A stretch of DNA of 64,000 bases. Origin: Mobula hypostoma. Taxonomy: Eukaryota. The stretch's first letter is position 1. The number at the start of each line of letters is the position of its first letter. The stretch is taken from the NCBI RefSeq assembly GCF_963921235.1, contig NC_086097.1, forward strand, positions 127,474,001-127,538,000. The letters run 5' to 3'. This document shows positions 1 through 41,555 of this stretch, in pieces. The position numbers and the translations under genes were made by a program. The notes under the pieces were generated by a model, which was not told the origin of the DNA, did not search any database, and was given only the letters and a program-made list of their open reading frames with translations.

Positions 1-1224
1 TTACAAATGTTTGGCTCAGCATCCTATAATTTGCTGGCTTATTCGAAGAGCCACTCTTGATCAACAGAACAGGTTTATCAATCCTCCAGTTCTCCAGCAC
101 TTCGCTCATGGCTAAGGATATTTGAAATATCTCTGCTAGGGCCCTTGCAATTTCTGCATTAGTGTCCCACATGGCAAAAGGGAGACCTTGTCAGGCTCTG
201 GGGATTTATCCACCCTAACGTGCTTCAAGACAGCAAGCACCTCCTCTGTAATCTATATATGGTCCAAGATCTCACTGCTGTTTTGCCTCAGTCTATCGAC
301 TCTGCGTCTGTCTCCCCGGCAAATAGAGATGCACAAATCTATTTATGATCTCCTCAGCTGTTTCGGTTCTATGAAGAGATGACCACATTTTTCTTCACGA
401 GGACCAATTTTTCCCTTGCTATCCTTTTCCTTATAGTATCTCCAGAAACCCTTAGATTCTCCTCCACCTTGTCTGCCAGAGCAACCTCAAACCTTCTTTT
501 ATCCCTCCTGATTTCCCTCTTAAGTCTTCTCTTGCTTTTCTTATACTCAAATACCTCATTTATTCCTGCCTGCCCATACCCGCTATGCACCTCCTTCTTT
601 TCCTTAACCAGGGCCTTAATATCTCTTGAAAACCAAGGTTTCCAAAACCCGTTTGGCTTTCCTTTTATTCTAACAAGAACATGCAAACTCTGTACTCTCA
701 AAATTTCACTTTTGAAGGCATCCTACTTACCAATTATGCCTTTTCCAGAAAACAACCGGTCCCAATCTTTGGTCTTTCGCCAGTTTAGAATCTCAACCTG
801 AGGACCAGACCACTCCTCCCTAATTACCTTAAAACTAATGGAATTATGATCACTAGACCCAAAGTGTCTCCTTACAAAGCGTCTTCTGTCACTTGTCCTG
901 CCTTGTTCCCTAACATTGATCCAGTATCACACTTTTTGTAGTTGGGACCTACATTCTGTCCCGGCTAAGAGCTGTGTGACATTTTCTTTGACTAGTAATG
1001 CTACACCCACCACCCCCGCCCAACCCCTCCAGGCTAACATGTCTAAAACAATGGAGCCCAAAAACACTGAGCTGCCGGTCCTACCCCTCCGACAACCAAG
1101 TCTCAGTAATGGCTACAATGTCATAATTCCACGTGCTGAGCCATGCTCTAAGCACATCCGCCTTACCTACAGAACTCTTGGCATTGAAATAGACACAGCT
1201 CAGAACATTATTCCTATCCTGCTC
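1..1224 (-). mobile_element. CR1 LINE ORF2 N-terminal (APE endonuclease) part, interrupted by the Penelope element; continues at about 5701-6130
   Basis: LSCVYFNAKS...YDIVAITETWL endonuclease motif; PWFSRDIKALVK linker. Confidence 0.85.
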
Positions 1225-1333
1225 AACTTTTGACTCAAACAACAGGAATTCTGCCGATGCTGGAAATTCAAGCAACATACATCAAAGTTGCTGGTGAACG
1301 CAGCAGGCCAAGCAGCATCTATAGGAAGAGGTG

Positions 1334-1371
1334 CAGTTGACGTTTCAGGCCGAGACCCTTCGTCAGGACTA
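1334..1371 (-). ncRNA. Minimal hammerhead ribozyme in the 3' pLTR, with a stem I mismatch
   Basis: Reverse complement of the same motif, reading GTC^AACTG instead of GTC^GACTG. Confidence 0.8.
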
Positions 1372-1667
1372 ACTGAAGGAAGAGTGAGTAAGGGATTTGA
1401 AAGTTGGAGGGGGAGGGGGAGATCCAAAATGATAGGAGAAGACAGGAGGGGGAGGGATAGAGCCGAGAGCTGGACAGGTGATAGGCAAAAGGGGATACGA
1501 GAGGATCATGGGACAGGAGGTCCGAGAAGAAAGACAAGGGGGGGGGGTTGACCCAGAGGATGGGCAAGAGGTATATTCAGAGGGACAGAGGGAGAAAAAG
1601 GAGAGTGAGAGAAAGAATGTGTGCATAAAAATGAGTAACAGATGGGGTACGAGGGGGAGGTGGGGCC

Positions 1668-4600
1668 TTAGCGGAAGTTAGAGAAGTCGATGTTCATGCC
1701 ATCAGGTTGGAGGCTACCCAGACGGAATATAAGGTGTTGTTCCTCCAACCTGAGTGTGGCTTCATCTTTACAGTAGAGGAGGCCGTGGATAGACATGTCA
1801 GAATGGGAATGGGATGTGGAATTAAAATGTGTGGCCACTGGGAGATCCTGCTTTCTCTGGCGGATAGAGCGTAGATGTTCAACAAAGCGGTCTCCCAGTC
1901 TGCGTTGGGTCTCACCAATATATAAAAGGCCACATCGGGAGCACCGGACGCAGTATGTCACCCCAGACGACTCACAGGTGAAGTGATGCCTCACCTGGAA
2001 GGACTGTTTGGGGCCCTGAATGGTGGTAAGGGAGGAAGTGTAAGGGCATGTGTAGCACTTGTTCCGCTTACACGGATAAGTGCCAGGAGGGAGATCAGTG
2101 GGGAGGGATGGGGGGGACGAATGGACAAGGGAGTTGTGTAGGGAGCGATCCCTGCGGAATGCAGAGGGGGGGGGAGGGAAAGATGTGCTTAGTGTGGGAT
2201 TCCCGTTGGAGGTGGCGGAAGTTACGGAGAATAATATGTTGGACCCGGAGGCTGGTGGGGTGGTAGGTGAGGACCAGGGGAACCCCATTCCTAGTGGGGT
2301 GGTGGGAGGATGGAGTGAGAGCAGATGTACGTGAAATGGGGGAGATGCGTTTAAGAGCAGAGTTGATAGTGGAGGAAGGGAAGCCCCTTTCTTTAAAAAA
2401 GGAAGACATATCCCTCGTCCTAGAATGAAAAGCCTCATCCTGAGAGCAGATGCGGCGGAGACGGAGGAATTGCGAGAAGGGGATGGCGTTTTTGCAAGAG
2501 ACAGGGTGAGAAGAGGAATAGTCCAGATAGCTGTGAGAGTCAGTAGGCTTATAGTAGACATCGGTGGATAAGCTATCTCCAGAGACAGAGACAGAAAGAT
2601 CTAGAAAGGTGTCGGAAATGGACCAGGTAAACTTGAGGGCAGGGTGAAAGTTGAAGGCAAAGTTAATAAAGTCAACGAGTTCTGCATGCGTGCAGGAAGC
2701 AGCGCCAATGCAGTCGTCGATGTAGCGAAGGAAAAGTGGCGGACAGATACCAGGATAGGCACGGAACATAGATTGTTGCACAAACCCAACAAAAAGGCAG
2801 GCATAGCTCGGACCCATACGGGTGCCCATAGCTACACCTTTAGTTTGGAGGAAATGGGAGGAGCCAAAGGAGAAATTAGTAAGAGTAAGGACTAATTCCG
2901 CTAGACGGAGCAGAGTGGTGGTAGAGGGGAACTGATTAGGTCTGGAATCCAAAAAGAAGCGTAGAGCTTTGAGACCTTCCTGATGGGGGATGGAAGTATA
3001 TAAGGACTGGACATCCATGGTGAAAATAAAGTGGTGGGGGCCAGGGAACTTAAAATTATCGAAAAGTTTAAGAGCGTGAGAAGTGTCACGAACATAGGTC
3101 GGAAGGGATTGAACAAGGGGTGATAAAACAGTGTCGAGGTATGCAGAAATGAGTTCGGTGGGGCAGGAGCAAGCTGAGACAATAGGTCGGCCAGGACAGG
3201 CAGGTTTGTGGATCTTGGGTAGGACGTAGAAACGGGAAGTGCGGGGTGTGGGAACTATAAGGTTGGTAGCAGTGGATATGGGAGATCCCCTGAGCGGATA
3301 AAGTCAGTGATGGTGTGGGAGACAATGGCCTGGTGCTCCTTAGTGGGGTCACGATCGAGGGGTAAATAAGAGGAGGTATCCGCGAGTTGTCGGTGTGCCT
3401 CGGCAAGGTAGAGGTCAGTACGCCAGACTACAACAGCACCCCCCTTATCAGCGGGTTTAATAATAAGGTTAGGATTAGTGCGGAGAGAGTGGAGAGCAGA
3501 GCGTTCCGAAGGAGTGAGGTTGGAATGGGGACAAGGTGCGGTGAAGTCGAGACGGTTGATGTCCCGTCGGCAGTTAGCAATAAAGAGATCCAGAGCAGGC
3601 AGAAGACCAGAGCGGGGTGTCCATGAAGAAGAGGAGGGTTGAAGACGGGAGAAGGGGTCCTCGGTGGGGGTGGAAGAGTCCTTGCCGAAGAAGTAGGCTC
3701 GGAGATGGAGACGGCGGAAGAAAAGTTCCGCATCGTGGCGAACACGGAACTCGCTGAGGTGTGGGCGAAGGGGGACAAACGTGAGGCCCTTACTGAGAAC
3801 AGAGCGTTCTGCCTCCGACAGTTGAAGGTCGGAGGGGATGGTAAAGACCCGGCACGGATGAGAGCTGGGATCGGAGGGGGGAGGCTGGGGGTGTCAATGG
3901 AGAGGGGAGGGTTGGGGTGAGAGGAAGATGGAGCCTCTGAGGGCCCAGGAGTTGACGGTGGGATCTGAGGAAGACGGGGCTGTGGAGTGGTGGTGGGGGA
4001 AGGGGAGACGGGAGTCACAACAGCAGCACTTGAAGACCCGGCCTGGAGCTCAAGGCTGGAGTCGCAGTTGGTGGTTGCGCAATCGCTGTGAAGGTGTCCA
4101 TGGTCGTTGCTGGAGTCCGGATTTTGAATATGCCCTGAGGTGTTGGAGCCGCCGAGATCAATGGCAGGTGCCGCAATCTGAAGTTCATGCCTGCTAGCGT
4201 CAGGGCCGGCAGGCTCTGGAGTCCGTAGATGTAGGATCTTGCGATCTTTGCCTAACATGACAAAGTCAAAAAAACGGCGATTGCAGGCGTGAATCCGACG
4301 GAGGATGAAATAACGGGTAGGACCATTACAGACGGCGAAGAAAGTGTCCCGAAGGTATGGAAGGGTCTGGGATAGGGACACCAAGTACCTCCTCATGGCG
4401 GAGAGCATCGCCTTCAGAGCTTGACGGGAGAAGCGGCGAGAGGCAGAGTCAATAAAATGTGAGTACCTGGGATCCTCAGAAGGTCCAAATTGAGAGGCTT
4501 GGAAACGAATCCTAAAGCCAACTGGAGTAAGTTGGCGACGGAGGCACGTTCCAAGAAAGGATATATGGCTGTGATAGCGAGTCTGAGTCAAAGTGTGGTC

Positions 4601-4701
4601 GAAAAGTTGAAGAGCCGAAGAAATTACAGATGGGAGCAGTGAGAGATGGTTTCACTGAACTCCTGTCGAAGAGAGGATCTAAACTTCTTCGGTGTAGGCA
4701 T
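1668..4701 (-). pseudogene. Penelope polyprotein (about 1000 codons): N-terminal region, DKG motif, reverse transcriptase, Cys linker, GIY-YIG endonuclease; about 4 frameshifts
   Basis: Motifs KPADKGG, DVQSLYTSIP, GVAMGTRMGP, RYIDD, CKRNKCYTC and LLYIGET...R...EH. ATG at 4701. Frameshifts near 4633, 3880, 3278 and 2170, mostly in short repeats or homopolymers. Confidence 0.9.
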
Positions 4702-5588
4702 CACCGGAAGAGGCTTCGCAGTAGTGAATTTAAACGCAAACAACAGGAATTCTGCAGATGCTGGAAATAAGCACATCTTTCCCTCCCCCTCTCTCTCTGC
4801 ATTCCGCAGGGATCGCTCCCTACACAACTCCCTTGTCCATTCGTCCCCCCCATCCCTCCCCACTGATCTCCCTCCTGGCACTTATCCGTGTAAGCGGAAC
4901 AAGTGCTACACATGCCCTTACACTTCCTCCCTTACCACCATTCAGGGCCCCAAACAGTCCTTCCAGGTGAGGCATCACTTCACCTGTGAGTCGACTGGGG
5001 TGACATACTGCGTCCGGTGCTCCCGATGTGGCCTTTTATATATTGGTGAGACCCGACGCAGACTGGGAGACCGCTTTGCTGAACATCTACGCTCTGTCTG
5101 CCAGAGAAAGCAGGATCTCCCAGTGGCCACACATTTTAATTCCACATCCCATTCCCATTCTGACATGTCTATCCACGGCCTCCTCTACTGTAAAGATGAA
5201 GCCAAACTCAGGTTGAAGGAACAACACCTTATATTCCGTCTGGGTAGCCTCCAACCTGATGGCATGAACATCGACTTCTCTAACTTCCGCTAAGGCCCCA
5301 CCTCCCCCTCGTACCCCATCTGTTATTCATTTTTATGCACACATTCTTTCTCTCACTCTCCTTTTTCTCCCTCTGTCCCTCTGAATATACCTCGTGCCCA
5401 TCCTCTGGGTCACCCCCCCACCCTGTCTTTCTTCCCGGACCTCCTGTCCCATGATCCTCTCGTATCCCCTTTTGCCTATCACCTGTCCAGCCCTTGGCTC
5501 TATCCCTCCCCTTCCTGTCTTCTCCTATCATTTTGCATCTCCCCCTCCCCCTCCAGCTTTCAAATCCCTTACTCACTCTTCCTTCAGT

Positions 5589-5626
5589 TAGTCCTGACGA
5601 AGGGTCTCGGCCTGAAACGTCGACTG
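5589..5626 (+). ncRNA. Minimal type I hammerhead ribozyme in the inverted pLTR
   Basis: TAGTC-CTGACGA-AGGGTCTCGGCCT-GAAA-CG-TC^GACTG: intact core, stems I and II, and an ACGT palindrome in place of stem III; predicted cleavage after C5621. Confidence 0.85.
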
Positions 5627-7029
5627 CACCTCTTCCTATAGATGCTGCTTGGCCTGCTGCGTTCACCAGCAACTTTGATGTATGTTGTAACTTTTGACTC
5701 CTGTCTTTGTAACATCATTCCCCATAACCACCCCTCTATTCACCCAGGTAGTGTGGTTTCCACCCTGCAACTCTAGCACAAACAAACCTTCCTACAGGTG
5801 CCCAGTGAGCCCCTCAGGTTCAGGTGCAATCCATCCCATCTACACAAGTCTCACTTTCTCTGGAAGATAGCCCAATGATCCAAAAATCTGAAGCTCTCCT
5901 GCATGCATCATCTCCTCAGCCAAGTGCTAAACTGTATTATCTTCCTATTTCTGGGCTTCTGAATTCAAATGGTATAATAAAAAAGTCTTGTATTACAACT
6001 GAGACCATTACAGTCTCTGGGCCTCAGTATCTTCTATCCATCCAGTCCACTTCCATGGTGTTTTGCTTCAAAAAAAAAAGCAAGCTGGTGGTATTGTCAA
6101 GGAGCTTCCCACCCTGGCCCTGCACTGTTCTCTCTTCTGTCTTCTGGGAGAAGATAAAGGAAACTGGATGAGCGAACTTAGGAACAGCTGCTTCCTCCTT
6201 ACTGCTGAGCTAATAATCTCTTTCTTGACCCTTTCCCAGTGGTGTTTCCACGTTCTTAGGCTCTTAATTCTATCTCTCTTACTGTTACTTTAGCATTTAC
6301 GTTTGCAGTGCTCAGACTGCACCGCAATTGTTAATCAATCTGTTGTTTTGTGCTCACTGTATTTACTGTGAAATGTACTACCACCACGTGCCGTACACTT
6401 GGTGAGCGTCATGCAAGCAAGGAATTTTATTGCACCCGGGGATATATGACAATTTAGATCCGATACAACAATTTCAGATAACTAGCTATGCAATCTTTTT
6501 CTTTTCACATATCTTACATTCGCAGTTAGTTTGCTTCTGGTAATTTCAAACATATGTTTGATTTTTATGTTCTTTTCTAGTTTCTTCATGTCACATTATC
6601 CACCAGAAACCTTTTGCAGCCTCTTTCAGCGCACTCCTTTCATCGTTCAATCTATCGTCTTCCCTCGTATCGAAACCTATCCTTTTATTCCCTACTTTGT
6701 TTCTGCCTTCCTCTGCATCTTACAAGTTTTACCTTCAACTTTCTCTGGTTCTGATGAACCGGAATTTTATCTGGGTGGATGTGAATCATGATGGCCATTT
6801 CTCTCTTTGCAGAGGCTGTCTGACGTGCTGTGTACTGTCATATACTTATGCTCAGCTTCAGACTGCCAACATGTAAGTAGCTGACACTGGAATGATGGGG
6901 GGGGGGTGAGGAGGGGGAGTGAGATGGTGACTGGGGAAGGGATGAGGGGTTAAATGGGGAGGAGGAAAGGATAGTGGAAGGGGGGTAGGGGAAGTGGGAG
7001 GGCATAGAGAGAGAAAACTTTGGACTTAC

Positions 7030-9379: not shown

Positions 9380-9520
9380 CAGTCCTGCTGAAGGGTCTCG
9401 GCCCAAAACATCAACTGGTTATTCATCTCCATAGAAGCTGCCTGACCTGCTGAATTCCTCCAGCATTGTGTGTGCGTGTGTTACTCTGGATTTCCAGAAT
9501 CTGCAGATTTTCTCCTGTTT
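9380..9520 (+). mobile_element. Penelope 3' fragment starting at a decayed hammerhead
   Basis: cagtcctgctgaagggtctcggcccaaaacatcaactg followed by the typical tail. Confidence 0.75.
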
Positions 9521-11599: not shown

Positions 11600-13495
11600 A
11601 ACACAGTGGACATCGACTTCATGAAGGTCTGTGTGGATGAGTGTGTGCCTCTGAGAACATACCAGACAGACCCAAACCCAAAGCTGTGGATGAACCAGAA
11701 GATTCATAGTCTACTGAGGGCTGGATCTGTGGCATTCAGAACTGGAGATCCAGAACTACGCAAACTATGGAAGGCTATTTTAAGAGTGAAAACTCATTCT
11801 AACTGAAGTTGGAGTGTGAATACGGTGCACGTCAGCTCTGGCAGGAGTTCCAGGCCATTACTTCTGACTAACGTCATGAACGGCTGTGATACTTCACTCC
11901 CAGGTGAGCTCAATGCCTTTATGCACACTTTGAAAGGGAGAATAAACTACACCTGTGTGAATCCTTGTCGCATCCTGTGATCTCGGTGTTGGAGGCAAAC
12001 GTCAGAACAACTTTCAAGAGTGAACCTTTACAAGACATCGGGCCCTGATGCTGTACCTGGTAGGGCACTGAAAACCTGTGCCAACCAACTGGCGGGAGTG
12101 TTCAAGGACATTTTCAATCTCCTGCTTCTGCAGTCGGAGGTTCCCACCTGCTTCAAAAGGCTGACAATTGTACCAGTGCCCATGAAGGGCAAGGTGAGCT
12201 GCCTCATTGACTATCACCCTGTGGCTCTCACATCTACCGTGATGAAGTGCTTTCAGAGGTTGGTCATGGGTAGAATCAACTCCTCCCTAAACAAGGACCC
12301 GCACCCGCTGCAATTTGCCTATCATACAGTGGATGCAATCTCACTGGCTCTCTGCTCAGCCTTGGACCACATGGACAATAGTAATACCTATGAGAGGTTG
12401 CTGTTTATTGATTACAGCTCAGCGTTCAACAGCATCACATCCTCAGTACTAGTCAACAAACTCCAAAACCTGGGCCTCTGTATCTGCAACCTTGACTTCC
12501 TCACCAGGAGGTAATAGTCAGTGTGGATCAGAAATAACATTTCCTCCTTGCTGACAATTAACTCTGTGTACCTCAAGGACGTGTGCTCAGCCCACTACTC
12601 TACGCTGTTTACACCCACGTCTATGTGTCTAGGCACAACTCAAACGGCATCTATATATTTGCTGATGACACAACCATTGTTGGCAGGATTTCAGATGGTG
12701 GTGAGAAGGCGTACAGGACTGAGATAGATCAGCTGGTTGAGTGGTGTTGCAACAGCAACCTTGCACCCAATGTCGGTAAGACCAAAGGATTGATTGTGGA
12801 CTTCAGGAAGGGGAAGTCGAGGGAACACATACCAGTCCTCATCGAGGGATCAAAAGTGGAAAGGGTGAGCAGTTTTCAGTTCCTGGGTGTCAACATTTCT
12901 GAAGATCTATCCTGGGCCCAACATTTGATGCAATTACAAAGGCAGCAAGGCAGTGACTATATTTCATCAGTAGTTTGAGGAGACTTAGTATATCACTGAA
13001 GACTCCCACAAATTTCTACAGATGTACCATGGAGAACGTTCTAATTGGTTGCACCATCATCTGGTATGGAGGGGCTACAGAAAGTTGCAAACTCAGCCAG
13101 CTCCATCATAGCCTCCACAGCACTGAAGACATCTTCAAAAGGCGATGTCTCAGAAAGGCACCATCCATCGTTAAGGACCCCCATCTTCTCATTGCTACCA
13201 TCAAGGTGGAGGTACAGGAGCCTGAAGGCACAGACTCCACATTTCAGAAACAGCTTCTTCTCCTCTGCTTCCAGATTTCTAGATGGACAATGAACCCATG
13301 TACACTACCTCACTATTTAAAAAATTTTTTGCTCTCTTTTTGCACTACTTATTTAAATATATATATATATTTCTTATTGTAATTTATAGTTTTTTGTTCT
13401 ACCATATAATATGTAATTACCGTTTATTTCTGCTGCAAAACAGTAAAATTTGCAACATATGCCAGTGATATTAAACATGATTCCTATTCTGATAC
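11600..13495 (+). mobile_element. Rex1/Babar-type LINE, decayed RT
   Basis: LKTCANQLAGVFKDIFN, FIDYSSAFN and IFADDTT motifs; tail ending in gattct-like repeats. Confidence 0.85.
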
Positions 13496-13699
13496 TTAAA
13501 TTTATTATCAAAGTAGTTACGTGTTACCTCAAGATTAATTTTCTTGCAGGCATTTACAGGAAAAAGAAATACAGTTGTATTTTTATGAAAAGCTATACAT
13601 AAGCAGACAAAGACTGGCCACCATCAATGTACAGAGGAACTGTGCAAGTAAAAATAGTACTGAGAACATGATTGTAAAGTCATGAATTGTAGAATGGCA

Positions 13700-19859: not shown

Positions 19860-21510
19860 CAGAAACATAGAAAACCTACAGCACACTACAGGCCCTTCTG
19901 CCCACAAAGCTGTGCTGAAAATGTCCTTACCTAGGGTTACCCACAGCCCTCTATTTTTCTGAGCTCCATGTACCTGTCCAGGTGTCTCTTCCACACACTC
20001 ACCACTCTCTGCATAAAAAAACTTACCCCTGACATCTCCTCTGTAAGCACCTTAAAACTGTGCCCTCTTGTGCTAGCCATTTCAGCCCTGAGAAAAAGCC
20101 TCTGACTATCCACACGATCAATGCCTCTCATCAACTTATACATCTCTATCAGGTCACCTCTCATCCTTTGTCGCTCCAAAGAGAAAAGGCTGAGTTCACT
20201 CAACCTATTGTCATAAGGCATGCTCCCCAATCCAGGCAACATTCTTGTAAATCTCCTCTGCACCTTTTCTATGGTTTCCATATCCTTTCTGTAGTGAGGA
20301 GACCAGAACTGAGCACAGTACTCCAAGTGGGGTCTGACCAGGGTCCTATATAGCTGAACATTACCTCTTGGCTCTTAAGTTCAGTCCCACGACTGATGAA
20401 GGCCAATACAGTGTATGCTTTCTTAGCCACAGAGTCAACCTGCACAGCAGCTTTGAGTGTCCTATGGACTCGGACCCTAAGATCCCTCTGATCCTCCACA
20501 CTAACAAGAGTCTTACCATTAATACTATATTCTGCCATCATATTTGACCTACCAAAATGAACCACCTCACACTTGTCTGGGTTGAACTCCATCTGCCATC
20601 AGCCCAGTTTTGCATCCTATTGATGTCCCGCTGTTACCTCTGACAGCCCTCCACACTATCCACAACACCCACAAACTTGGTGTTATCAGCAAATTTACTA
20701 ACCCATCCCTCCACTTCCTCATCCAGGTCCTTTATAAAAATCACAAAGAGTAGGGGTCCCAGAACAGATCCCTGAGCCACACCACTGGTCACCAATGTCC
20801 ATACAGAATATGACCCATCTACAACCACTCTTTGCCTTCCGTGGGCAAGGCAGTTCTGGATCCACAAAGCAATGTCCCCTTGGATCCCATGTTCCCTTAC
20901 TTTCTCAATAAGCCTTGCATGGGGTACCTTGTTAAATGCCTTGCTGAAATCCATTTACACTACATCTACTGCTCTACCTTCATCAATGTGTTTAGTCACA
21001 TCCTCAAAAAATTCATTCTGGCTCATAAGGCACGACCTGCCTTTCACAAAGCCATGCTGACTATCCCTAATCATATTATGCCTCTCTAAATGTTCATAAA
21101 TCCTGCCTCTCAGGATCTTCTCCAGCAGCTTAACAACCACTGACAGACTCACTGGTCTATAATTTCCTGGGCTATCTCTACTCCCTTTCTTGAATAATGG
21201 AATAACATCTGCAACCCTCCAATCCTCCACAACCTCTCCCGTCCCCATTGGTGATGCAAAGATCACCGCCAGAGGCTCAGCAATCTCCTCCCTCAGTAGC
21301 TCAGGGTACATCTTGTCCAGTCCTGGTGACTTATCCAACTCGATGCTTTCCGAAAGCTCCAGCACATCCTCTTTCTTAATATCTACATGCTCAAGCTTTT
21401 CAGTCTGCTGTAAGTCATTCCTACAATCGCCAAGATCCTTTTCCATAGTGAATACTGAAGCAAAGTACTCATTAAGTACCTTTGCTATCTCCTCTGGTTC
21501 CATACAGACA
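19860..21510 (-). mobile_element. CR1 LINE 3' part (RT) in EEF1E1 intron 3
   Basis: [30 protein letters not shown]; 3' end at agaaacatagaaa. Confidence 0.9.
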
Positions 21511-22689
21511 GATCCCTGAGAGATGATACTGAAGTAAAGACAAGATTGAGTTTGCTTGTAATTGAGATGTTTTGGATTAGTCCCTTGAACATTAGGAAGT
21601 TTTTGAGAAGAACAGGCCGTTCGGCCCAATTCTAATGCAGCTGGACCCATTCAGAAAGTCTCAAAAACATGTGAAAAGGGGATAAAAGGAACAACTTCCA
21701 ACAGGGTTGCCATTCCTCTGTGGGGTAAAACTGAGAGCCTTGTGCAAAGTGCATACTGACCCTCTTCAAAAGTCACTACTCAGCTGCTGGGTTCTGATGA
21801 GAATAGAGCCATGGAGCAGAAATAATAATAATAATTATTGATTCTATATGGGAAATTCTTTTGTTATAGCAGCAATATTTAAAAACACACTTAACAGTGT
21901 GCAGGCTTAACTAATAGTATACCAATAATGTACCAATGTGCAATAATAATATTACATCATGATGTGTGTTCTCCCGTTGCAGAGATGAACTGCTGTATAT
22001 GCTTATTGCACTTGGTTTTTGTAATGATCCTTGTGACAGTGAAGCTGAGTGAGCCTGTTCGAAATGGCCCTCTGCTGCCTTTTCATGAAGAGGATCTGCC
22101 AGATTGTTTATAAAGAAATGTCTATAATGGTTTTGAACTTACATGAGGGCTTGGACTTCAATGCTTTAATTCTCCCCAGGCTTCCAGAAGTGCAAACAGT
22201 TGATTTCCAAAGGAACCTGACATTTTCCACCAGCACAATTTAACCCAGAAGTTCAATTCAGTAAGATCTGGCACATTAAACATGCAACCTCCAGTGAAAT
22301 TTCAATTTTTTGACACAACTATGAGAAGAATACCTAAATGTTAATCTGTAATCTCAAGTAACAACTGAGTGGGAATGGAACCCTTGCAACAATTTGGAAA
22401 ACTTTCTAAATTATCTCGTTTCAACTTTTGGGTTTTAAAGAGCCCAGCGCTTGCTATTGTATCTTCTACTTCACTGGAGCCTCACACCATGCATCAAATG
22501 TAACGCACCGAACATTATTTTACAGCAAAGGTCAGCGTATTACACAGTTTATTATCCAAATGGATCATTTCTATCAAATTACATCAGATTCTTCTATTGT
22601 ATTTTTTCTCAGTCTTTATTAGGGTAAGAAACAAGTAGTAATTCCTTCCTAATGTTGATTATTTCTCTCACTGATGCTCATGATCTAAT

Positions 22690-25239: not shown

Positions 25240-25482
25240 AAACACTTCCATCACATTAACCTCCACCACCACCGGCAGCACAAACACTTCCATCACGTTA
25301 ACCTCCACCACCACCGGCAGCACAAACACTTCCATCACATTAACCTCCACCACCACCGGCAGCACAAACACTTCCATCACGTTAACCTCCACCACCACAA
25401 ACACTTCCATCACGTTAACCTCCACCACCACCGGCAGCACAAACACTTCCATCACATTAACCTCCACCACAACCGGCAGCAC
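25240..25482 (+). repeat. 42-bp minisatellite, 6 copies (one shortened to 33 bp), inside a CR1 3' end
   Basis: Unit aaacacttccatcacRttaacctccaccaccaccggcagcac at 25240, 25282, 25324, 25366, 25399 and 25441. Confidence 0.95.
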
Positions 25483-28111
25483 ATTACAGGCACCCACCAC
25501 TCTCCGGTTTTAAAAAAATAGTGCCCTGCACATCTTTAAATTTCACCCCACCCTGTAAAGAGAAAAAGGAAATAAAGGTTGTCCTTTAGAGATGCATTTG
25601 TAATTCTTGAACAAAGTATCAAATTATGAGACTTTTCAGGATTTACCTATTTGAGTTCCTTACATTTAAAAAAAATATACCATACAATGGCATTAACCAC
25701 CCTGCCATGCATCCCAAAAATTCATTTTGAATTGGCAACAGCAAAAAAACAAGTTCAGCAATTCTTAGATTAAAATGTTGTAGCCACTACTATTCTCATA
25801 TCAACAATGCTTGCAATTGTTGATTCGGCAAAGGGTATTTTGATTGAGTACTGCCAACAGCCTTGAAGAAGCACGACTAGTTGAAATCTTTGATCATCTT
25901 CCTTCTATCTAAGTAAGCGACACAGTCCTTGTGGGCAATAAAACATGAATGCAAAGTTACCCCAGTCATAATCACAGCTAAAGTTTGGCAAACACATTAT
26001 CGAAATTTGAAAAGGATTTATTTTTGATTGCTTTGAATTGAATGTTTAGTGGCTCTAAAGAGGTTTTGAAGTCAGTCACGACATTAAGACACCTAACCTA
26101 TTACATGTAAACATTTAACAGCATTATTGGAAAGAGTTCCACAGACATTTCAGTACTGTTAATACAAGCTTCTTGAATGTTAAATCAATGGTGACTATAA
26201 ACATAACCTAAAATGTTTTCAAGTTCAAGTTTAAATTATCATTTAACCATACACAAATATCCATTAATACAGCCAAACAAACAGTGTTACTGATGCAAAA
26301 CACAGTACAAACAGTCATACACATCACAAGGCACACACAGCACATATCAGACAGCACTAAAATACAATCACACAAAAAAATAGTCCAGGTCCCCAAGTCC
26401 ATGAATGTTGCAGCAGTCTGCAATTAAACACAATGCATCAACTTCTGGCCAGCGAACACTGGGGAACAGCACCAACTCTGCTGCCTTTCCCTTGGGCAGC
26501 CAGAAGCAAGCAACACTGCAGCTTGAAGCCTAGACCTTGCCATGATCGAGGCCACACAGCTCCCCAGCCGCCCGCCAACAAATCAATGAATCGGACTTGC
26601 AGAAGCCGCTGCATCCGAGATCGTTGCCAACTTACTGGAAGATGTATATTCTCAACCCGTATATGCAAATGTATATGCCTCACTTTATACACGGATTACT
26701 TAACTATTGAGCTGAATCTATTGGGGAATTTTTAAATACAGAGCCTAATTATTTAAATTTGTTTTTGCTGCTAAGAAAACAAAATATTAAGTAGAAACCG
26801 CAGAAGCTAGAAATCTGAAATAACAACATAAAATGCTGGAAATATTCAGCAAGTCACCAGCATTTGGACAGGATGAAACACTTAACATTCCAGGACTAGG
26901 AAACAAAGACTCAAACTTAAGTTGCAGAAAAAAGAAAGGTAGAGAGAACAAATAGAATGCCTGATCAGACAGGATGGTGAAAACTTGCTCACAGGAGCTG
27001 TTCTGTCTGGGGAGATGTAGACAGGAGATGAGTGGATTCACAATAGAAAATAAAGATAGAATTAGAGATACTTTGATGTCAATGGCTAGAAATCTAAAAT
27101 AAAATGGAACTTTGGAAATACCTCTGAGGTATACAGAGAAGAACTAAGTTAATGTCACAATCTTTCATTTGGTCAGCTCAGGTACGAACTGGATAACATT
27201 TATCTGAAATTGTTGAATTCAGTGTAGATTGTAACATGTCCAATGAAATGAGATTGGGCCCTATTAGAACAGTATAACAAGTCAAAAAAAGGCCAGGGAA
27301 TGGATGGAACATTTAGATGATGAGTAACTGGAAGTCAGGAGTTATAGAGTGAATGGAGATGTCTGGTAATGCAGTCACCCAGTTTACAACAGGTTTCACA
27401 AATGTGGAGACCATGTCGTGCGTAGAGAATGCAGTACACAAAAGTGAATGTACAAGTCAATTGTTGCATCAAAATATTATGTATGGAACCTCACGTTCTT
27501 TATAGATATAATAAGTGCCACAACTTCAATCTCCACCAATCATTCTACATTCTTCCAACCTAAATAATAACGTTCCAGAAATATCCTAAAAGTAAATCAA
27601 TGTCTGCATGTTTCTGTCCAAATATGGTTAAAACAAGGATGAAGGTAATCAACTTAACTTGAGAATGAGTGGATAGAGTTGATGCAACATTTGTGAATGT
27701 GGACTGGCTTATGAATTACTATACTTACTGTGATTTTCTGTAGTAATTCCCTTCCAAATTTAGGATAGTTGGTCCTGGGTCAAAACTTTAAGGGTTTGCA
27801 TAGAAATTTTAAAATTTACAGTTTGAGAGCACTGTTCACTTACATGCAAAGAGAAAGTAGACTATTCAAAAGATAAAACAGAAGCCATTAAATGCACCTT
27901 GTTACATATCCACCGGATTCTTCGATACATTTTACTGCATTGAAACACAAAGGTGTATGACATTTTATCATCTTTTCTGATTAAAAAAAACTTTCAATTG
28001 ACCTTTATGCTGTTGGAATTAACCATCTTTCATAGCAATTAAACAGGATCCATATATCCTATTCAGAGAAAGTGCAAGAGATAACTTTCCAAGGTTCTAC
28101 AAATCACTTAC

Positions 28112-28879: not shown

Positions 28880-30040
28880 CCACTGGACATCCTGAACAAT
28901 ACAAACACCTACGTTAGGATGCTGTTCGTCGATTATTGCTCAGCATTTAACACCATCATTCCCACGATCCTGATTGATAAAGTTACAGAACCTGTGCCCC
29001 TGTACCTCCCTCTGCAATTGGATCCTCGACTTCCTAAATGGAAGACCACAATCTATGTGGATTGGTGATAACATCTCCTCCTCGCTGACGATCAACACTG
29101 GTGCACCTCAGGGATGTGTGCTGAGCCCACTGTTCTACTCTCTATACACACATGACTGTGTGGCTAGGCATAGCTCAAATATCAACTATAAGTTTGCTGA
29201 AGATACAACTATTGGTTGAATATCAGATGGAGATGAGAGGGCGTACAGAAGCAAGATACACCACCTAGTGGAGTACTGTTGCAACAACAACCTTGCACTC
29301 AATGTCAGTAAGACGAAGGAACACATACATACCAATCCTCACAGAGGGATCAGAAGTGGAGAGAGTGAGCAGTTTCAAGTTCCTGGATGTTAAGATCTTG
29401 GAGGACCTAACCTGGTCCCAACATATCTATGTAGCTATAAAGAAGGCAAAACAGCAACTATACTTCATTATGAGTTTGAAGAGATTTGGAATGTTGACAA
29501 AAACACTCAAAAAGTTCTATAGATGTCTTGACTGGCTGCATCACTGTCTGATATGGGGGAAGGGGCTACTGCACAGGACTGAAAGAAGCTGCAGAGGGTC
29601 ATAAATTTAGTTGGCCCATTCTTGGGTACTAGTCTACAAAGTACCCAGGACATCTTCAAGGAACAGTGTCTCAGAAAGGCAGCATCCATTATTAAGGACC
29701 ACCAACACCCTTCCCCCCCCCCCCCACCTATGGCATGCCCTTTTCTCACTGTTACTGTCAGGAAGGAGGTACAGAAGCCTGAAGGCACACAATCAGTGAT
29801 TCAGGAACAGCTTCTTCCCCTCTGCCATCCGATTCCTAAATACCGTGAACACTACCTCACTTTTTAAAATATATATTATTTCTATTTTTGCATAATCTTT
29901 AATCTATTCAATAGACATATACTGTAATTTAATAATTTATTTATTTTTCTTTCTATATTATGTATTGCATTGAACTGCTGCTGCTAAGTTAACAAATCTC
30001 ATGACGCTTGCCGGTGACAATAGACCTGATTCTGATTCGG
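28880..30040 (+). mobile_element. Rex1/Babar LINE fragment
   Basis: [20 protein letters not shown]...KFAEDTT; tail cctgattctgatt. Confidence 0.85.
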
Positions 30041-32200: not shown

Positions 32201-32284
32201 AGGTGTTTGCGAAGAAAAAGCTTTGCTTTTCAGGATGTATGTTGTATACATTTCTCTAACATTAAATTGTACCTCTGAACCTTT

Positions 32285-32680
32285 GAAAGCGAAGTGGGGG
32301 AAAGAGAAGGGAAAGTTGAGTTTGGAGGTAGGATAACGTTAAATATGGTGGAAATTGCAGAAAATGATGCATTGGAAGCACAGGTTATGGGGTGGTAGGT
32401 GAGAACAAAAGGAAATCTATCCTTGTCAAGGTGGCGGGAGGATGGGGTAATGGAAAATGGAGGAGACGTGGGTGAGGGCAGCATCAATGGTGGAGAAGGG
32501 AAACTTTGTTCATTGATGGAGGTCAGTTCTGATGTCACGAAAAAGAAAGCCTCAATCTGGGAACAGATGTGGCGGAGATGAAGGAACTGAGAAGAGGGAA
32601 TAGCATTTTTACAGGAGACAGGTTGGGAAGAGGCAACGTCAAGATAGCTGTGGGAATTGGTATATTTATAAAAAGATATT
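32285..32680 (-). mobile_element. Decayed Penelope RT C-terminal fragment
   Basis: SHSYLDVASSQPVSCKNAIPSSQFLHLRHICSQ, homologous to the young element. Confidence 0.8.
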
Positions 32681-34090
32681 TTTATAACCATGGTGGTGTC
32701 CTTCTTCCCTTTGAAAATTTCTTCTTATTTGGAATATGTCTTGCACTACCCTTATTTTTCGCAAAAACTCCAGCCATTGCTGCTCTGCTGTCCTTCCTGC
32801 AAATGTCCCTTTCCAGTCAATTTCCGCCAGTTCCCTCCTCATGCCATTGTAATTTCCTTTATTCCACTGAAATACTGACACATTGGATTTTATTTTTTCC
32901 CTCTCAAATTTCAATGTGAACTCGATCATATTGTGTGAACTGTTCCCCAAGGGTTCCTGAACCATAAGTTCTTTTATCACCTCCAGACCATTGCACAACA
33001 CCCAATCCAGCATTGCCGATCCCCTAGTGGGCTCAACAACAAGCTGTTCTAAAAAGCCATCTCTTAGGCATTCTACAAATTCTCTCGAGGTCCAGTACTG
33101 ACCTGGTTTTCCCAATCCACTTTCATGTTAAAATCCCCAATGATTATCATGACATTGCCTTTCTGACGTGCCTTTTCTATCTCCTACTGTAAATTATAAT
33201 CCACATCCCGGCTGTTGTTTGGAGGCCTGTATACAACTGCCATTAGGGTTCTTTTACCCTTGCCATTTCTTAACTCAACCCATACAGACTCTACACCTTC
33301 CAATCCTATGTCATCTCTTTCCAATGATTTAATATTATTTCTTGTACACAGAGCCACACCACCCCCTCTGCCTACTAACCTATATTTCCGATACATCGTA
33401 TATCCTTGGGCGTTCAGCTCCCAATGGCAGCCATCCTTTAGTCATGTTTCAGAGATGGCCACAACGTCATATTTGCCATCTGTAGCTGAATTTCAAGATC
33501 ATTCATTTCACTCCTTATGCTGCGTGCATTCAAATACAACACCCTCAGTCCAGTATTTGTTGCTTTCTGTTTTAACTGCACCACGCCTTTATTGCTCTGT
33601 AACTCATGACACTGGCTTTGATTAAGCCTCATCTCCTGCCTGTTCTTTCTATAATCTCTGTTGCATGCTATCTTTGATTTATTTGTTTTCCCCTTCCTCA
33701 GCCCTATCATTCCGGTTCCCATCCCCCATCCAAATTAGTTTAAATCCTCCCTAACAGCTCTCTTAAATGTGACTGCTAGGATACTGGCATCTCTTTGAGT
33801 TCAGGTGTAACCTGTCCTTTTTGTACAGGTCGTACCTCCCCCAGAAGAGGCCCCAGTGATCCAGAAATTTGAAGCCCTGCCCCCCTACACCTTACATCAG
33901 TCTCTCAGCCACACATGAATACATTGATCATGCTATTCTTGCACTTGCTAGCACATGGCACAGGCAGCAATCCTGAGATTACTACCCTAGAGACCCTACC
34001 TTTCAGCTTCCTCCCTAACTCCCTGAATTCTCTCTTCAGGACCTCCTCCCTTTTTTTTTAACCTATGTTATTGGTGTACCAAGACTTCTG
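32680..34090 (-). mobile_element. CR1 LINE 5'/endonuclease part
   Basis: LRVLYLNARSIR, GRGGGVAL, VVYRPPN, EPTRGSAMLDWVL. Confidence 0.88.
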
Positions 34091-34529: not shown

Positions 34530-34883
34530 CTGCAAAGTCAGAAAAAGATTATTTAACAAGCCATGCTCCTATAGTGTATTGTATAAACATTTATAAACTG
34601 TAAACCAATGGATGGGCTACTCAAGAAAATAGCTGTACATAATACTTTATTGATCAAATATTTATCAGTTTTTAGGTATAGCGGCTGGGTGGACTAGTGA
34701 GCCCATCAAATGGGATTTTGCTTTTAATATGTGCACTGGCTGTTTTAACAGCTTCAGATTACCCTCGTACCTATAGACCGTCAGAAGAAAAGTAAGTCAA
34801 CACAAAACAAATGATATTATCCTAGGCTCCTGAACAGCATGAAAAATTTTACTTGCCTCAACGTTAAACTGACTCCATAATCT

Positions 34884-35075
34884 GTTGCAAACACGAGGAA
34901 ATCTGCAGATGCTGGAAATACAAGCAACACACATCAAAGTTGCAGGTGAACGCAGCAGTCCAGGCAGCATCTCTAGGAAGAGGTACAGTCGACGTTTCGG
35001 GCCGAAACGTCGACTGTACCTCTTCCTAGAGATGCTGCCTGGACTGCTGCGTTCACCAGCAACTTTTATGTGTGT
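34884..35075 (-). mobile_element. Miniature fold-back Penelope insertion (tail plus palindrome) in EEF1E1 intron 1
   Basis: TSD TCCATAATCT at 34874-34883 and 35076-35085; arms of about 75 bp around a 1-nt centre at 35001; homologous to 1237-1350. Confidence 0.9.
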
Positions 35076-35934
35076 TCCATAATCTATCGATTCACTTTCA
35101 AGGACTCTACAACTCACGTTCTTGTTTAAAATTATTTATTTATTTATTATTGGCACGATTTGTCTTCATTTGCACATGGGAATTTGTTAGTCTTTGTTAT
35201 GTACAGCTTTTCATAAAGTTTATCATGTTTATTTTCTTGTAAATGTCTGCGAGAAAATGAATCTCAGGTAATATATGGTGACACATACATATTTTGATAA
35301 TAAATTTACTGAACTTTGAATAATTGTTTATCTCTTTTCTTGATCAGCTTGTATATCTAAACTTCAGGGAGGTTTGCAGGAAGAAGTCAACCAGTGTGAT
35401 AAAGTGTAAAAGCTTTTCCCACTTTTATTCCCCTCCAGCAAAAACAAAAGCTGTAATTCCAAGTGGTATCTTTTAAAAATGTAGTTTAAATGATAATTTC
35501 AAATTGGGGAAGATCCAAGTGTGTACCTTAGTGTGTAGAGGTGGGGCAGGGCTTGGTGGTGGGAGTTGGGACAAATGTGGGGAGCAAAAAAGAACAGTAA
35601 TGTGTCAATAGGTGCTTGATAGTATGTGTGGACTCAGTGGGCCAAAGGGTCTATTTCTGTGCTCTGATCAATCTCTATACTTGCTCTGTACATTCTGCTA
35701 GTATACAATTATCTTTAATGAGAGTTGGTCACTGGGTCCCAGATCAGAAAATTGCAGTTCACTAACCTGCAGAGCAGGTCAAAGCAGTTAGCACCGTACA
35801 CCCACGGCTGCTCTGAAAATACTGGTGGCTGAACTCCATAGATGGTCTTGCAGAGTTAACGAGAATGCAGAGGAAGGAATTGGCAACACAAAAAGGGTGT
35901 TGTCACAATTTCACGGGAAGGGGGTCAGGCAAGT

Positions 35935-38520: not shown

Positions 38521-39589
38521 CAGCTGTCTTGTTCAAGTTCATTGTCATTCAACTGTACACATATTTACAGCTAAACTGAACAACGTTCCTCTGGGGCCAA
38601 GATGCAAAACACAGTACATACATAAAATACAGTACATAAAGTTAACAGATAATATTAACAGATACAGGCAGAGAGACGGATGATGGGGTGGGGGGGGTGG
38701 TGGTGCAGTTTCTCCAGAACTATTGAGAATCCCGTCTCAGCTTTCCGAAGAACTGTACATGGTTGCGGAGCAGAGACTGAACCCATTGTAGGTGCCATGT
38801 CTTCTGTGCTGTGCATACATCATGTGTATTATGGTAACTAGTCATATTAGTGGGGGCATGGTAAAGGTGAAGGGAATAAGTTTCATATTCAAGCTTATTT
38901 CAGGGCAGTTTGTAGCTTGGAGGTCATACCTTTGCTCAGATAATGCTCAATAATGTTTCACTGTAGGTTTTCTAATTGCAAATAAAGGATCGAAATAAAG
39001 AATTGGACTTTTGGAGCAATCATGGGAGCTCAGGGCATGTCACAGGCAAGAGGCAATTGTTTTGTTTGATCTTGGATCAGTCTTTCGCCACTACACCCTA
39101 CATCATAAGCTATGTTATCAATTATCTACACTTTCTGAAAGATCAGAATATTAGAAAAGGTGACAATTGCTGATAACATTAATCTAATTGACTAATCCTC
39201 AAATAAAGAAGCAGCCCACTGGCTCTTGGAGCAAAATCCCGATGATATTGGGAATAAGAGAGTTGAGAAAGTCTCTTGACCATCCTTTAATGAGAACATG
39301 TGCTATTCTTCTAAACTGGAATGTCTAATCAAGTCAAGTTTATTGTCGGTAAGGTACAATTAAGAACTTGCATCCAGCAGCATCACAGACACATTGAGTC
39401 AGGCAATACGCAGAACATGAATAATACATAAATTATACAGGCTTTTCTTCAGTCATAATGGATAATTGACCTGAAATGTTAACTGTCTTTCTCTTTCCAT
39501 ATTGTGTCTGATCTGCTGAGAATCATCATCACTTTTTAAAAAAATATTCTGCTTTTCAAATGGATCACAGCTAACTTTTCCAACACCAC

Positions 39590-40511
39590 ATTCTCTGCTA
39601 CTTCCTCCATTTTCAACAGGATCCTACAACTATACACATCTTTACTCCAACCCCCCCCCCCCACCAACGCTCTCCGCTTTCCGCAGGGATTGCTCCCTCC
39701 ATGATTTTTTTGTCCATTCGTTCCTCCCCACTAATCTCCTTTCTGGCAAGTGACTGAAATGCTACACCAGCCCATTCATGTCCTCCCTAAAGTCCTTCCA
39801 GGTGAGGCAGCAACTTCACCTGCAACCTGTTGAGGTTGTGTACTGTATCCAGTGCTCCCGATGCAAGCTCCTCTACAATGGTGAGACCCAATTTAAATTG
39901 GGGGATGGCTTTGTCGAGCACCTTAGCTTCATCCGCCAAAAGCAGAATTTCCCAGTTACCAAACATTTAATTTCTATCCCCTCCTGACATGTCGGTTCGT
40001 GGCCTCAGCTTCTGCCACGGTGAGACCACTCTCAGGATGGAGGAGCAACACTTCATGTTCCCTCTGGGTAGCCTCCAACCTGATGGCATGAACATTGATT
40101 TCTCCTTCTGGTAACTTTTTTTCTCTTCTTTTCTTTTCTCCTCCCCCTCCACTCTTCATCCATTCTCTACTCTTTCCTCTTACCCACTTCTCCTCACCTG
40201 CCTATCATGTCCACCTGGTGCTCCCCCTTTCTCCCATGGTCCACTCTCCTCTCCTATCAGATTCCTTCTTCACCAGCCCTTTACCTCTCCCACCAACCTG
40301 GCTTCACCTTTCACCTTCTAGCTTGTCCTCTTTCCACTCCCCCCAACCTTTTTATTCTGGCACCTTCCCCCTTTCTTTTCAGTCCTGAGGAAGGGTCTTG
40401 GGCTGGGATGGCAACTGTTTATTCATATAGACGCTGCCTGACCTGTAGAGTTCCTCTAACATTTTGTGTGTGTCACTTTGGATTTCCAGCATCTGCAGAA
40501 TCTCTTGTGTT
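39590..40511 (+). mobile_element. Older 5'-truncated Penelope copy with decayed GIY-YIG, decayed hammerhead (about 40381-40417) and tail
   Basis: VVYCIQCSRCKLLYNGET; ctgggtagcctccaacctgatggcatgaacat shared with the young element; tail tttccagcatctgcagaatctcttgtgttt. Confidence 0.85.
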
Positions 40512-40779
40512 TAACTTTTCTCAATCTCTTATGAAGCTGGGATATAGAGTCTAATAGCAATGAAGCATGCTCTTCCCTCTTTGACAGTTTATTCCTCTCC
40601 ATAGATGCTGCCTGACCTGCTGAGTTCCTCCAGCAATTTGTGTGTCTTGCTTCACCCCACCAAGTCTGCACTGACCCTCAAGTGCCAACTTGCATTAATC
40701 CTACACCAATCACCATTTATTTTGTTCTCCCCCCATTCTCATCAGCTCTCTCTCTCATCTCTCACTGACGCACACATTA

Positions 40780-41555
40780 TTGAATTGAATTGAATTTATT
40801 CCTTGCATCCTTCACATACACGACGAGTAAAAATCTTTATGTTATGTCTCCGTCTGAATGTGCAATGTGCAAATTATAAATAGTATGTACAGTAAGATAT
40901 ACAACAGAACAGTCAATATAGCCTAGAAATACAATTGTGTCAGCGTGAATTAATCAGTCCGATGGCCTGGTGGAAGAACCTGTCCCGGAGCCTGTTGGTC
41001 CTGGCTTTTATGCTGTGGTACTGTTTCCTGGATGGTAGCAGCTGGAACAGTTTGTGGTTGGGGTGATTTGGGTCCCCAATCATCTTTTGGGCCCTTTTTA
41101 CGCATCTGTCGCTGTAAATGTCCTGAATCGTGGGAAGTTCACATCCACAGATGCGCTGGGCTGTCTGCACCACTCTCTGCAGAGTCCTGCGATTGAGCGA
41201 AGTACAGTTCCCATACCAGGCAGTGATGCAGCCAGTCAGAGTGCTCTCAATTGTGGCCCTGTAGAAAGTCGTTAGGATTTGGGGACTCATGCCAAACTTC
41301 TTCAACCGTCTGAGGTGGAAGAGGCGCTGTTCTGCATTTTTCACCACACAGCCGGTATGTACAGACCCCGTGAGATCCTCAGTAATGTGTATACTGAGGA
41401 ACTTGAAGTTGTTCACCCTCTCAACCCCAGATCCATTGGTGTTACTGTCTCCATTCCTCCAGTAGTCCATAACCAGTTCCTTTGTTTTTGCGACATTGAA
41501 AGAGAGGTTGTTTTCTTGACACCACTGTGTCAGGGTGATTACTTCTTATCTGTAG
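40780..41555 (-). mobile_element. Rex1/Babar LINE 3' fragment
   Basis: VERVNNFKFL...QRLFHLRRLKKFG...WYGNC; (attga)n tail. Confidence 0.88.

Follow-up and report, generated by a model that had tools for sequence, protein, structure and literature searches.

A Penelope-like element with an inverted arm between two recurrent ends, and a possible origin by priming at both target ends

How does one retroelement insertion come to hold, inside one TSD, an inverted copy of its own 3' end? This question is raised by positions 1225-5700 of the window, the whole 64,000-nucleotide stretch of Mobula hypostoma DNA analysed here, where a preliminary description had recognised a complete Penelope insertion with a twin-priming-like inversion. 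As it also stated, inverted pLTRs with short tails are known in Penelope elements. The published layout of Penelope-like elements (PLEs), as given in the available parts of PMC3846280 and PMC8557442, comprises a direct or inverted pLTR, a tail of 30-40 bp at one end and a TSD of variable length, with an inverted, 5'-truncated copy adjoining the 5' end (PMC8557442); the main insertion has all of these, and its structure is therefore ordinary. What is peculiar to it, as a single case, is that the long cDNA stops almost exactly where the inverted copy starts. The accessible sections of PMC11167929 and PMC8557442 call the origin of tail, inverted pLTR and TSD unresolved, and in an open-access literature search no publication turned up that invokes twin priming for PLEs.

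Boundaries and layout of the insertion

The main insertion is divided as follows.

1225-1236, no strand: TSD copy at the element's 3' end, an exact 12-mer repeat
1237-1272, minus strand: 36-nt "tail" between two fixed family ends, with putative RT start site 1 at 1236/7 and site 2 at 1273; the same ends are seen in the copies found at 34888/35075 and 43679 (the notion of a tail is taken from the available part of PMC11167929)
1273-1667, minus strand: 3' UTR or pseudo-LTR region, adjoining the stop at 1668-1670
1668-4701, minus strand: PLE ORF with N-terminal domain, RT, CX4CxxC linker and GIY-YIG endonuclease with CCHH residues, not coding-intact (translation, profile search, tblastn)
4702-4736, minus strand: 5' UTR, contiguous with the upstream unit's tail (sequence comparison)
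4737-4768, minus strand: putative partial tail of an upstream tandem unit and end of cDNA1, equal to 1236-1267
4768-4773, no strand: inversion junction, with 1 nt of microhomology and 5 nt lost, or 5 nt of microhomology (TGCTT) and 2 nt lost
4768-5687, plus strand: inverted 920-bp arm (linker, endonuclease coding part and 3' UTR, without the tail), equal to 2191-1273 and putatively cDNA2
5688, no strand: extra base between arm and TSD, belonging to neither the element nor the 12-bp TSD
5689-5700, no strand: TSD copy at the inverted-arm end, an exact 12-mer repeat

The exact 12-bp TSD, AACTTTTGACTC, at 1225-1236 and 5689-5700 is the sole direct repeat of at least 6 nt at the boundaries of the main insertion, and the chance that an exact 12-mer would fall no more than 10 nt from both ends is about 3e-5. 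This one TSD encloses both the inverted and the non-inverted parts. No TSD of the inverted arm's own was found, the longest repeat flanking it being 5 nt long and 25 nt outside the arm, in line with the earlier claim of a single insertion. The described layout (TSD, inverted 920-bp copy, 31-nt tail piece, 5' UTR, ORF, 3' UTR, tail, TSD) holds almost base for base. Two details were absent from that description: base 1236, which matches the last base of the tail, is common to tail and TSD, and base 5688 may be untemplated, a mutation, or part of a 13-bp TSD with a mismatch.

Four runs were compared over 700-4830, a stretch that takes in only a small part of the inverted arm and ends short of the right flank. 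Family contigs matching it numbered 285,000-346,000 in three runs and 252 in X14; this PLE family is very abundant. None of the 15 joints (of 2269) or the 32 pieces (of about 492,700) listed crossed the insertion's junctions, and no empty allele of the main insertion was seen. Pattern scans of metagenome and viral contigs returned 0 copies of the element. Although the arms differ by 2.4% and junction-spanning reads are missing among those listed, we regard it as highly improbable that the structure reflects two separate insertions, mis-assembly or a rearrangement at a later time: one exact TSD lies at the outer edges and none at the arm, both ends are family-fixed ends, runs X1 and X2 both carry the left flank (832-1122) unchanged, and the 22 differences between the arms are scattered, which argues against a mirrored read.

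Coding region and class membership

The translation contains a PLE-type RT plus a GIY-YIG endonuclease at the C terminus, the combination that, in a single ORF, marks EN+ PLEs. The profile matches (RVT_1, E 9e-6; GIY-YIG, E 7e-4) lie just under the Pfam cut-offs, and tblastn with eight homologues matched every domain in its proper order, in fragments separated by four frameshifts at about 4630, 3870, 3275 and 2168. The CCHH motif is present as VTY..CSRC..YIG followed by EH and THF; in the available text of PMC8557442 its two cysteines between GIY and YIG belong to the definition of EN+ PLEs. A linker of the CX2-5CxxC form, CKRNKCYTC, precedes the endonuclease, and a linker of this form recurs in 90 of the 93 homologues with a recognisable EN core, out of 120 listed. 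The Penelope identity first proposed is thus borne out by the RT and GIY-YIG domains, the CCHH residues, the tail and the pLTR; "complete" applies to the extent of the element but not to its ORF, which the four frameshifts break. Collectively, these features class the main insertion as a full-length, decayed PLE, probably of Neptune/Nematis type, the two groups not being separated by phylogeny. RT, linker and C-terminal GIY-YIG with CCHH are shared with the Neptune/Nematis EN+ PLEs of Craig et al., and no difference from them, as presented in the accessible part of that paper (PMC8557442), appeared at the level tested.

The ORF opens at the ATG at 4701, 36 nt from 4737, and the N-terminus of the homologue P0008 is alike, opening with MPT... 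A further in-frame ATG that lies upstream, near 1279, was rejected as the true start; it needs 1278A, which is missing in the other copies.

Fixed ends and comparison copies

Ends and arms were examined in three copies, all within the window: the main insertion and two small ones.

34874-35085, no strand: a pair of short arms, head to head, flanked by a TSD of 10 bp (14 bp if 2 mismatches are allowed), ending at the equivalents of sites 1 and 2, with the turn in hammerhead stem II
43497-43690, no strand: a pair of short arms that overlap, flanked by a TSD of 13 bp, ending at the equivalents of site 1 and about 1320

Site 1 is an end in all three TSD-flanked subfamily copies of the window and site 2 in two of them; the 34.9-kb copy ends at the equivalent of 1274/5, and the arm of the 43.5-kb copy starts about 47 nt from site 2. 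In the main copy, the inverted arm begins 36-37 nt inside the element end. The 37-nt inset of the preliminary description is not a chance internal priming point; it is a fixed family end that recurs in the 34.9-kb copy and matches the tail that PMC11167929, so far as it is available, places between a pair of RT start sites.

In the accessible part of that paper, PAc, a Poseidon element of Anolis carolinensis, cuts and extends both target strands in vitro, and its RT begins at two neighbouring internal sites marking the limits of the tail, without homology to the cut DNA (PMC11167929). The outer ends of our main copy fit these two start sites, and the likeness extends to their position 3' of the hammerhead and to the use of uncleaved RNA. 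In PAc, as described there, the ORF begins within the hammerhead and takes in the tail, whereas in the main copy the ATG lies 36 nt beyond the tail (PMC11167929). That portion of the paper offers no model of inverted arms. The two elements belong to different clades: the in vitro start-site data come from Poseidon, and our family is of Neptune/Nematis type (comparison from the same portion of PMC11167929). None of the five pLTR and tail stretches folded with significant stability (z -0.5 to -1.3), and we therefore claim no hairpin around site 2.

In L1 twin priming, which is reportedly due to Ostertag and Kazazian (2001), the second primer is said to have to pair with an internal RNA site. At site 2 of the main copy no such match was found, the target sequence and the continuing RNA being unlike already at the first base. 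The main copy resembles L1 twin priming in that both target ends would prime, the cDNAs lie head to head, the junction loss is small and one TSD surrounds the whole; it is unlike it in having a fixed second priming site without target homology, no poly(A) and a template of more than one unit. Classical priming of this type, in which the second target end would have paired with an internal RNA site complementary to it by chance, is in our view very unlikely. It is favoured by the adjacency of the segments on a tandem template and by a small deletion like those at L1 internal breakpoints (available part of PMC12350158), but the priming site lacks complementarity and is found again in another, independent copy.

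The inverted arm and the template

The 4737-4768 segment repeats 1236-1267 at an offset of 3501 with one mismatch. The earlier claim that the template exceeded one unit is upheld, since cDNA1 would measure 3531 nt against a unit of 3501; this excess length explains why the inverted part duplicates the 3' end. The claim that the tail is fused to the 5' UTR 36 nt before the ATG is exact as to distance, but under internal initiation the "fusion" would be native, contiguous RNA. Segments adjacent on the template, as twin priming has them, are found in the main copy if the template was tandem and not on a monomer, and they are not found in the small copies.

At the junction, the loss of 1268-1272 with base 4768 shared, as first described, is a correct parse but one of two, and the TGCTT parse fits equally well. 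TGCTT at 4769-4773 also matches 1270-1274, inside a gapped match of 8/9. An exact match this long occurs at 72 of 3430 possible arm ends and a gapped score this high at 22 of 3430, so the microhomology is above chance. The arms themselves (1273-2191 against 5687-4768) are 97.5% identical over 921 columns, with 22 differences. They share three variants absent from the other copies in the window, as well as 1957G, whose share of the family depth is 0.9-1.9% in runs X1, X2 and X5. The arms of the main copy are thus of shared lineage.

Shared rare variants are also expected if cDNA1 snapped back by its 3' end at TGCTT near 2190 and was copied to 1273 (the available part of PMC3846280 puts forward an antisense RNA in this role), with endonuclease resolution, to which the accessible text of PMC8557442 ascribes the tail, setting the end. 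The shared arm variants and the microhomology of the main copy fit cDNA fold-back equally well; TGCTT can serve as the snap-back anchor, and palindromes at inverted junctions are published (PMC3846280, same portion) and one is present at 34.99 kb. We nevertheless hold fold-back to be unlikely. It predicts arms identical at birth, but in each small copy the arms differ at one site, and both alleles occur in other copies of the family; moreover, the fixed end would have to be explained separately, whereas internal RT initiation accounts for it (available part of PMC11167929). The two arms of each small copy cover overlapping stretches of the RNA and carry different family alleles; therefore each arm had its own template unit.

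Whether the main copy was made on one tandem RNA or on two RNAs from the same source is close to even. It is possible that the two target ends were primed on separate RNAs from one source element, each carried by one subunit of a dimeric RNP. The PAc protein is a predicted dimer that extends both strands (accessible part of PMC11167929), L1 target ends extended on different mRNAs are documented (bioRxiv 2024.12.14.628481, in the part available), and the small copies need two template units. Two units of one tandem RNA also account for the small copies, however, and the stop beside the upstream site 2 is left unaccounted for. Slightly more tentatively, both primings may have occurred on one tandem RNA, with the second primer at the upstream site 2 and cDNA1 stopped by collision. 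The arms share lineage variants, and cDNA1 ends 0-5 nt from the upstream unit's site 2. Family depth falls 36- to 60-fold over 3 kb in runs X1, X2 and X5, from which a stop within a given 15 nt has a chance of about 2%, a rough figure as contig depth is not copy number. Against this, it is one case, and with two RNAs the same stop would follow from a protein-bound tail, a transcript start at that place or trimming back to the microhomology.

The structure called typical for Penelope also speaks against a collision. In the available part of PMC3846280, Pen2a_Av of Adineta vaga resembles the main copy in having an ORF unit and an adjoining inverted pLTR in one TSD (9 bp, against 12 in the main copy) and a tail on one end only (31 bp). 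It has a whole direct pLTR of 218 bp upstream and an overlapping inverted one of 181 bp, so that cDNA1 must pass site 2, whereas the main copy keeps only 31 nt of the upstream unit and its inverted arm, at 920 bp, reaches into the ORF (comparison from the same portion of PMC3846280).

Hammerhead motifs

Pattern scans picked out two candidate minimal hammerhead motifs, of a class described in PMC4209133, so that the pLTR in both arms carries a match.

1335-1370, minus strand: minimal motif (stem I, CUGACGA, stem II, GAAAC GUC), predicted cut 1339/1338, stem I mismatch at 1338
5590-5625, plus strand: second minimal motif with core and stem I intact, predicted cut 5621/5622

An Rfam search gave no hammerhead match in the element. 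The predicted cut lies inside both arms of the main copy, which agrees with unprocessed RNA as the substrate. Hammerhead cleavage was rejected as the cause of any end or junction: the predicted cut at 1339/1338 stands apart from the ends at 1236/7, 1273, 1267, 2191 and, in the small copies, about 1356-1368.

Proposed order of events

The reading that we consider probable is that both target ends were primed at two programmed internal sites and that the cDNA ends were joined by microhomology. We infer the order of events, with RNA priming at both ends as in the anole element in vitro, as follows. The GIY-YIG endonuclease, presumably, would cut both target strands 12 bp apart, the distance given by the observed TSD. 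One target 3' end would prime RT at site 1, the end of the tail, on an uncleaved RNA longer than a unit, and cDNA1 would extend 3531 nt into the upstream unit's tail. The other target 3' end would prime at site 2, 36-37 nt away, to give a cDNA2 of 920 nt. The cDNA 3' ends would then anneal through the short, imperfect match at TGCTT, lose a few bases and be filled in. The twin-priming-like origin first proposed stands insofar as both target ends would prime and the geometry of the main copy equals twin priming on a tandem RNA; it departs from that model in its fixed site, its lack of primer homology and the overlapping arms of the small copies.

Significance for PLEs

The main copy offers a clean test case for how inverted pLTRs form, in a very abundant family with two fixed ends. 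The two-start-site signature, biochemical for Poseidon, is extended by sequence comparison to a Neptune/Nematis-type family. As a tentative proposal, a dimeric RNP may sit on two successive tails of one tandem RNA, using site 1 of the downstream and site 2 of the upstream tail, and this locus would be an uncommon full-length instance of the first RT running into the second. If true, such programmed twin priming would provide one mechanism for the tail, the inverted pLTR and the TSD.

Structure of the main copy

The Penelope-like element (PLE) insertion at 1225-5700, hereafter the main copy, is a real, single and decayed insertion on the minus strand. Its features are as follows.

1225-1236 and 5689-5700: TSD, an exact 12-bp repeat flanking the main copy
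5688: unexplained single base, the first inside the TSD in element sense
5687-4768: inverted arm, equal to 1273-2191
4768-4737: partial tail, equal to 1267-1236
5' UTR: 35 nt, between the partial tail and the ORF
ATG at 4701 to stop at 1668-1670, minus strand: PLE ORF
3' UTR: after the ORF stop, before the 36-nt tail
1272-1237: tail, 36 nt, the last part of the main copy in element sense

Re-derivation of the TSD, arm, tail and ORF bore out all coordinates of the preliminary description, although its complete element is refined by four frameshifts that break the ORF. The two arms align over 921 columns with 97.5% identity and 22 differences. No TSD borders the inverted arm alone (flanks of the arm checked), so that the whole is one insertion, as had been proposed. 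The loss of 5 nt with 1 nt of microhomology originally read at the inversion junction is a valid parse; a second parse takes TGCTT as 5 nt of microhomology, with 2 nt lost. An exact junction match of this length is obtained with 72 of 3430 possible arm ends, and an equally good gapped match with 22 of 3430.

This architecture has already been published for PLEs. The typical Penelope structure in PMC3846280 is an ORF unit, an inverted pLTR and a 31-bp tail within one TSD, for which antisense self-priming was proposed as the origin. PMC8557442 gives the same layout and explains the tail by endonuclease resolution, with the formation of inverted structures named among its unresolved points. Inverted pLTRs with short extensions are listed as routine in PMC8969392.

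The assembled structure is supported only indirectly, by arms that are not mirror-identical, by the exact TSD and by two ends that coincide with the family ends. The left flank at 832-1122 is identical in sequencing runs X1 and X2, which are one sample, and 832-1002 is nearly identical in run X5. The flanks at 1114-1224 and 700-837 also occur as repeats in the runs, where their depth is high and base 1140 differs in 98%, and the main copy therefore probably landed in an older repeat.

Identity and abundance of the family

Pfam matches of the main-copy RT and GIY-YIG are weak, but 1504 longer proteins match the RT piece with E values of 1e-30 or lower. Among those with names, the best is from the shark Chiloscyllium punctatum (71%), which suggests that the host is a cartilaginous fish. 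The translation contains a CX4CxxC linker and CCHH residues, which PMC8557442 gives as features of Neptune/Nematis PLEs; of 93 homologues that have an EN core, 90 carry the linker. A pattern scan found a minimal hammerhead motif, of the class described in PMC4209133, in each arm.

The family is very abundant, with 326,228 (X1) and 346,028 (X2) contigs aligned to 4.1 kb of the window. In X1, X2 and X5, its depth is 36- to 60-fold lower in the 5' part than in the 3' part. The three runs also contain a joint of 1295 to 4739 (depth 51, 58 and 317), which suggests direct mini-tandems, with a short unit from 1295 placed immediately after a unit that ends at site 1 (see below).

Further copies and other features of the window

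Two further TSD-flanked inverted copies of the same subfamily lie at 34874-35085 and 43497-43690. The first has its ends at the equivalents of 1236 (site 1) and 1274/5 (site 2), and the same RNA stretch is copied in both arms, which meet in hammerhead stem II. Over 34874-35089, the TSD of this copy could instead measure 14 bp and contain two mismatches, both transitions, thereby absorbing 4 otherwise untemplated bases. The second ends at site 1 and about 1320, with an arm overlap of at least 41 nt. Site 1 is thus used in 3/3 and site 2 in 2/3 TSD-flanked subfamily copies of the window, counts that omit 9381-9520 and 40381-40512 (about 73%), which belong to a different subfamily, have no clear TSDs and are older. 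Older PLE fragments of a related subfamily, 67-73% identical, lie at 32282-32700 and 39579-40513 and comprise RT thumb, endonuclease and pLTR end.

Within each small copy, two sites distinguish the arms. One of these sites is polymorphic among the other copies, which points to two template units behind each small copy. The main-copy arms, judged by their variants, stem from one source lineage, because they share three variants absent from other window copies as well as the rare 1957G (0.9%, 1.4% and 1.9% of depth in X1, X2 and X5).

The 43.5-kb PLE copy is inserted within an element at 43297-44183 that carries long terminal inverted repeats (about 83%), with further inverted repeats nested inside it, and that resembles a non-autonomous DNA transposon. 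A tandem array occupies 25240-25483 (period 42, 33/75 variants, about 6 copies). Open frames with mutual matches at 11981-13615, 28884-29892, 40943-41545, 53464-54348 and 20958-21650 look like putative decayed LINE fragments.

Mechanism of insertion

The main copy is best explained by double-ended priming at two programmed start sites, with the cDNA 3' ends then joined through microhomology, a reading that we consider reasonably probable. Both target ends would prime RT, one at each of the two fixed family ends, site 1 (1236/7) and site 2 (1273); the 3' ends of the resulting long sense copy (cDNA1, from site 1) and inverted arm would then be joined by microhomology. In the anole PLE, the protein cuts both target strands and extends them, RT starts at two adjacent internal sites without target homology, and the tail is the stretch between these sites (PMC11167929).

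The insertion had been called twin-priming-like, and the likeness holds in that both target ends would prime here too. However, the second site is fixed, and comparison of target with RNA at site 2 found no match, which together make L1-type twin priming very unlikely for the main copy. As reportedly put forward by Ostertag & Kazazian in 2001, primer annealing is required in L1 twin priming. The L1 process is treated in PMC12350158 and bioRxiv 2024.12.14.628481; an open-access literature search combining Penelope with twin priming returned matches on other subjects, according to their listings.

Since cDNA1 (3531 nt) exceeds one unit (3501 nt), the template was tandem or circular, in agreement with the preliminary description, and it was uncleaved at the hammerhead. 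The end of cDNA1 lies 0-5 nt from the upstream unit's site 2, for which the chance is about 2% under a flat truncation rate (a rough estimate). This favours a single tandem RNA for the main copy, but it is a single case, and two RNAs could give the same stop if a protein were bound there, if a transcript started there or if the cDNA were trimmed back to the microhomology. We regard a collision of cDNA1 at upstream site 2 of one tandem RNA as a tentative possibility. A fold-back origin of the inverted arm in the main copy seems to us unlikely. In two of three copies, the target DNA adjoining site 1 is similar to the RNA that lies immediately past that site (4725-4736). Among 1224-1235, 43680-43691 and 34876-34887, the matches are 6/10 (chance 0.028), 7/10 (chance 0.005) and, in the third copy, 3/10, in a post hoc comparison with n=3. 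In contrast to the homology-free initiation reported for the Poseidon PLE of Anolis carolinensis, the resemblance hints that this family may use loose primer-RNA pairing or have a target preference at site 1.
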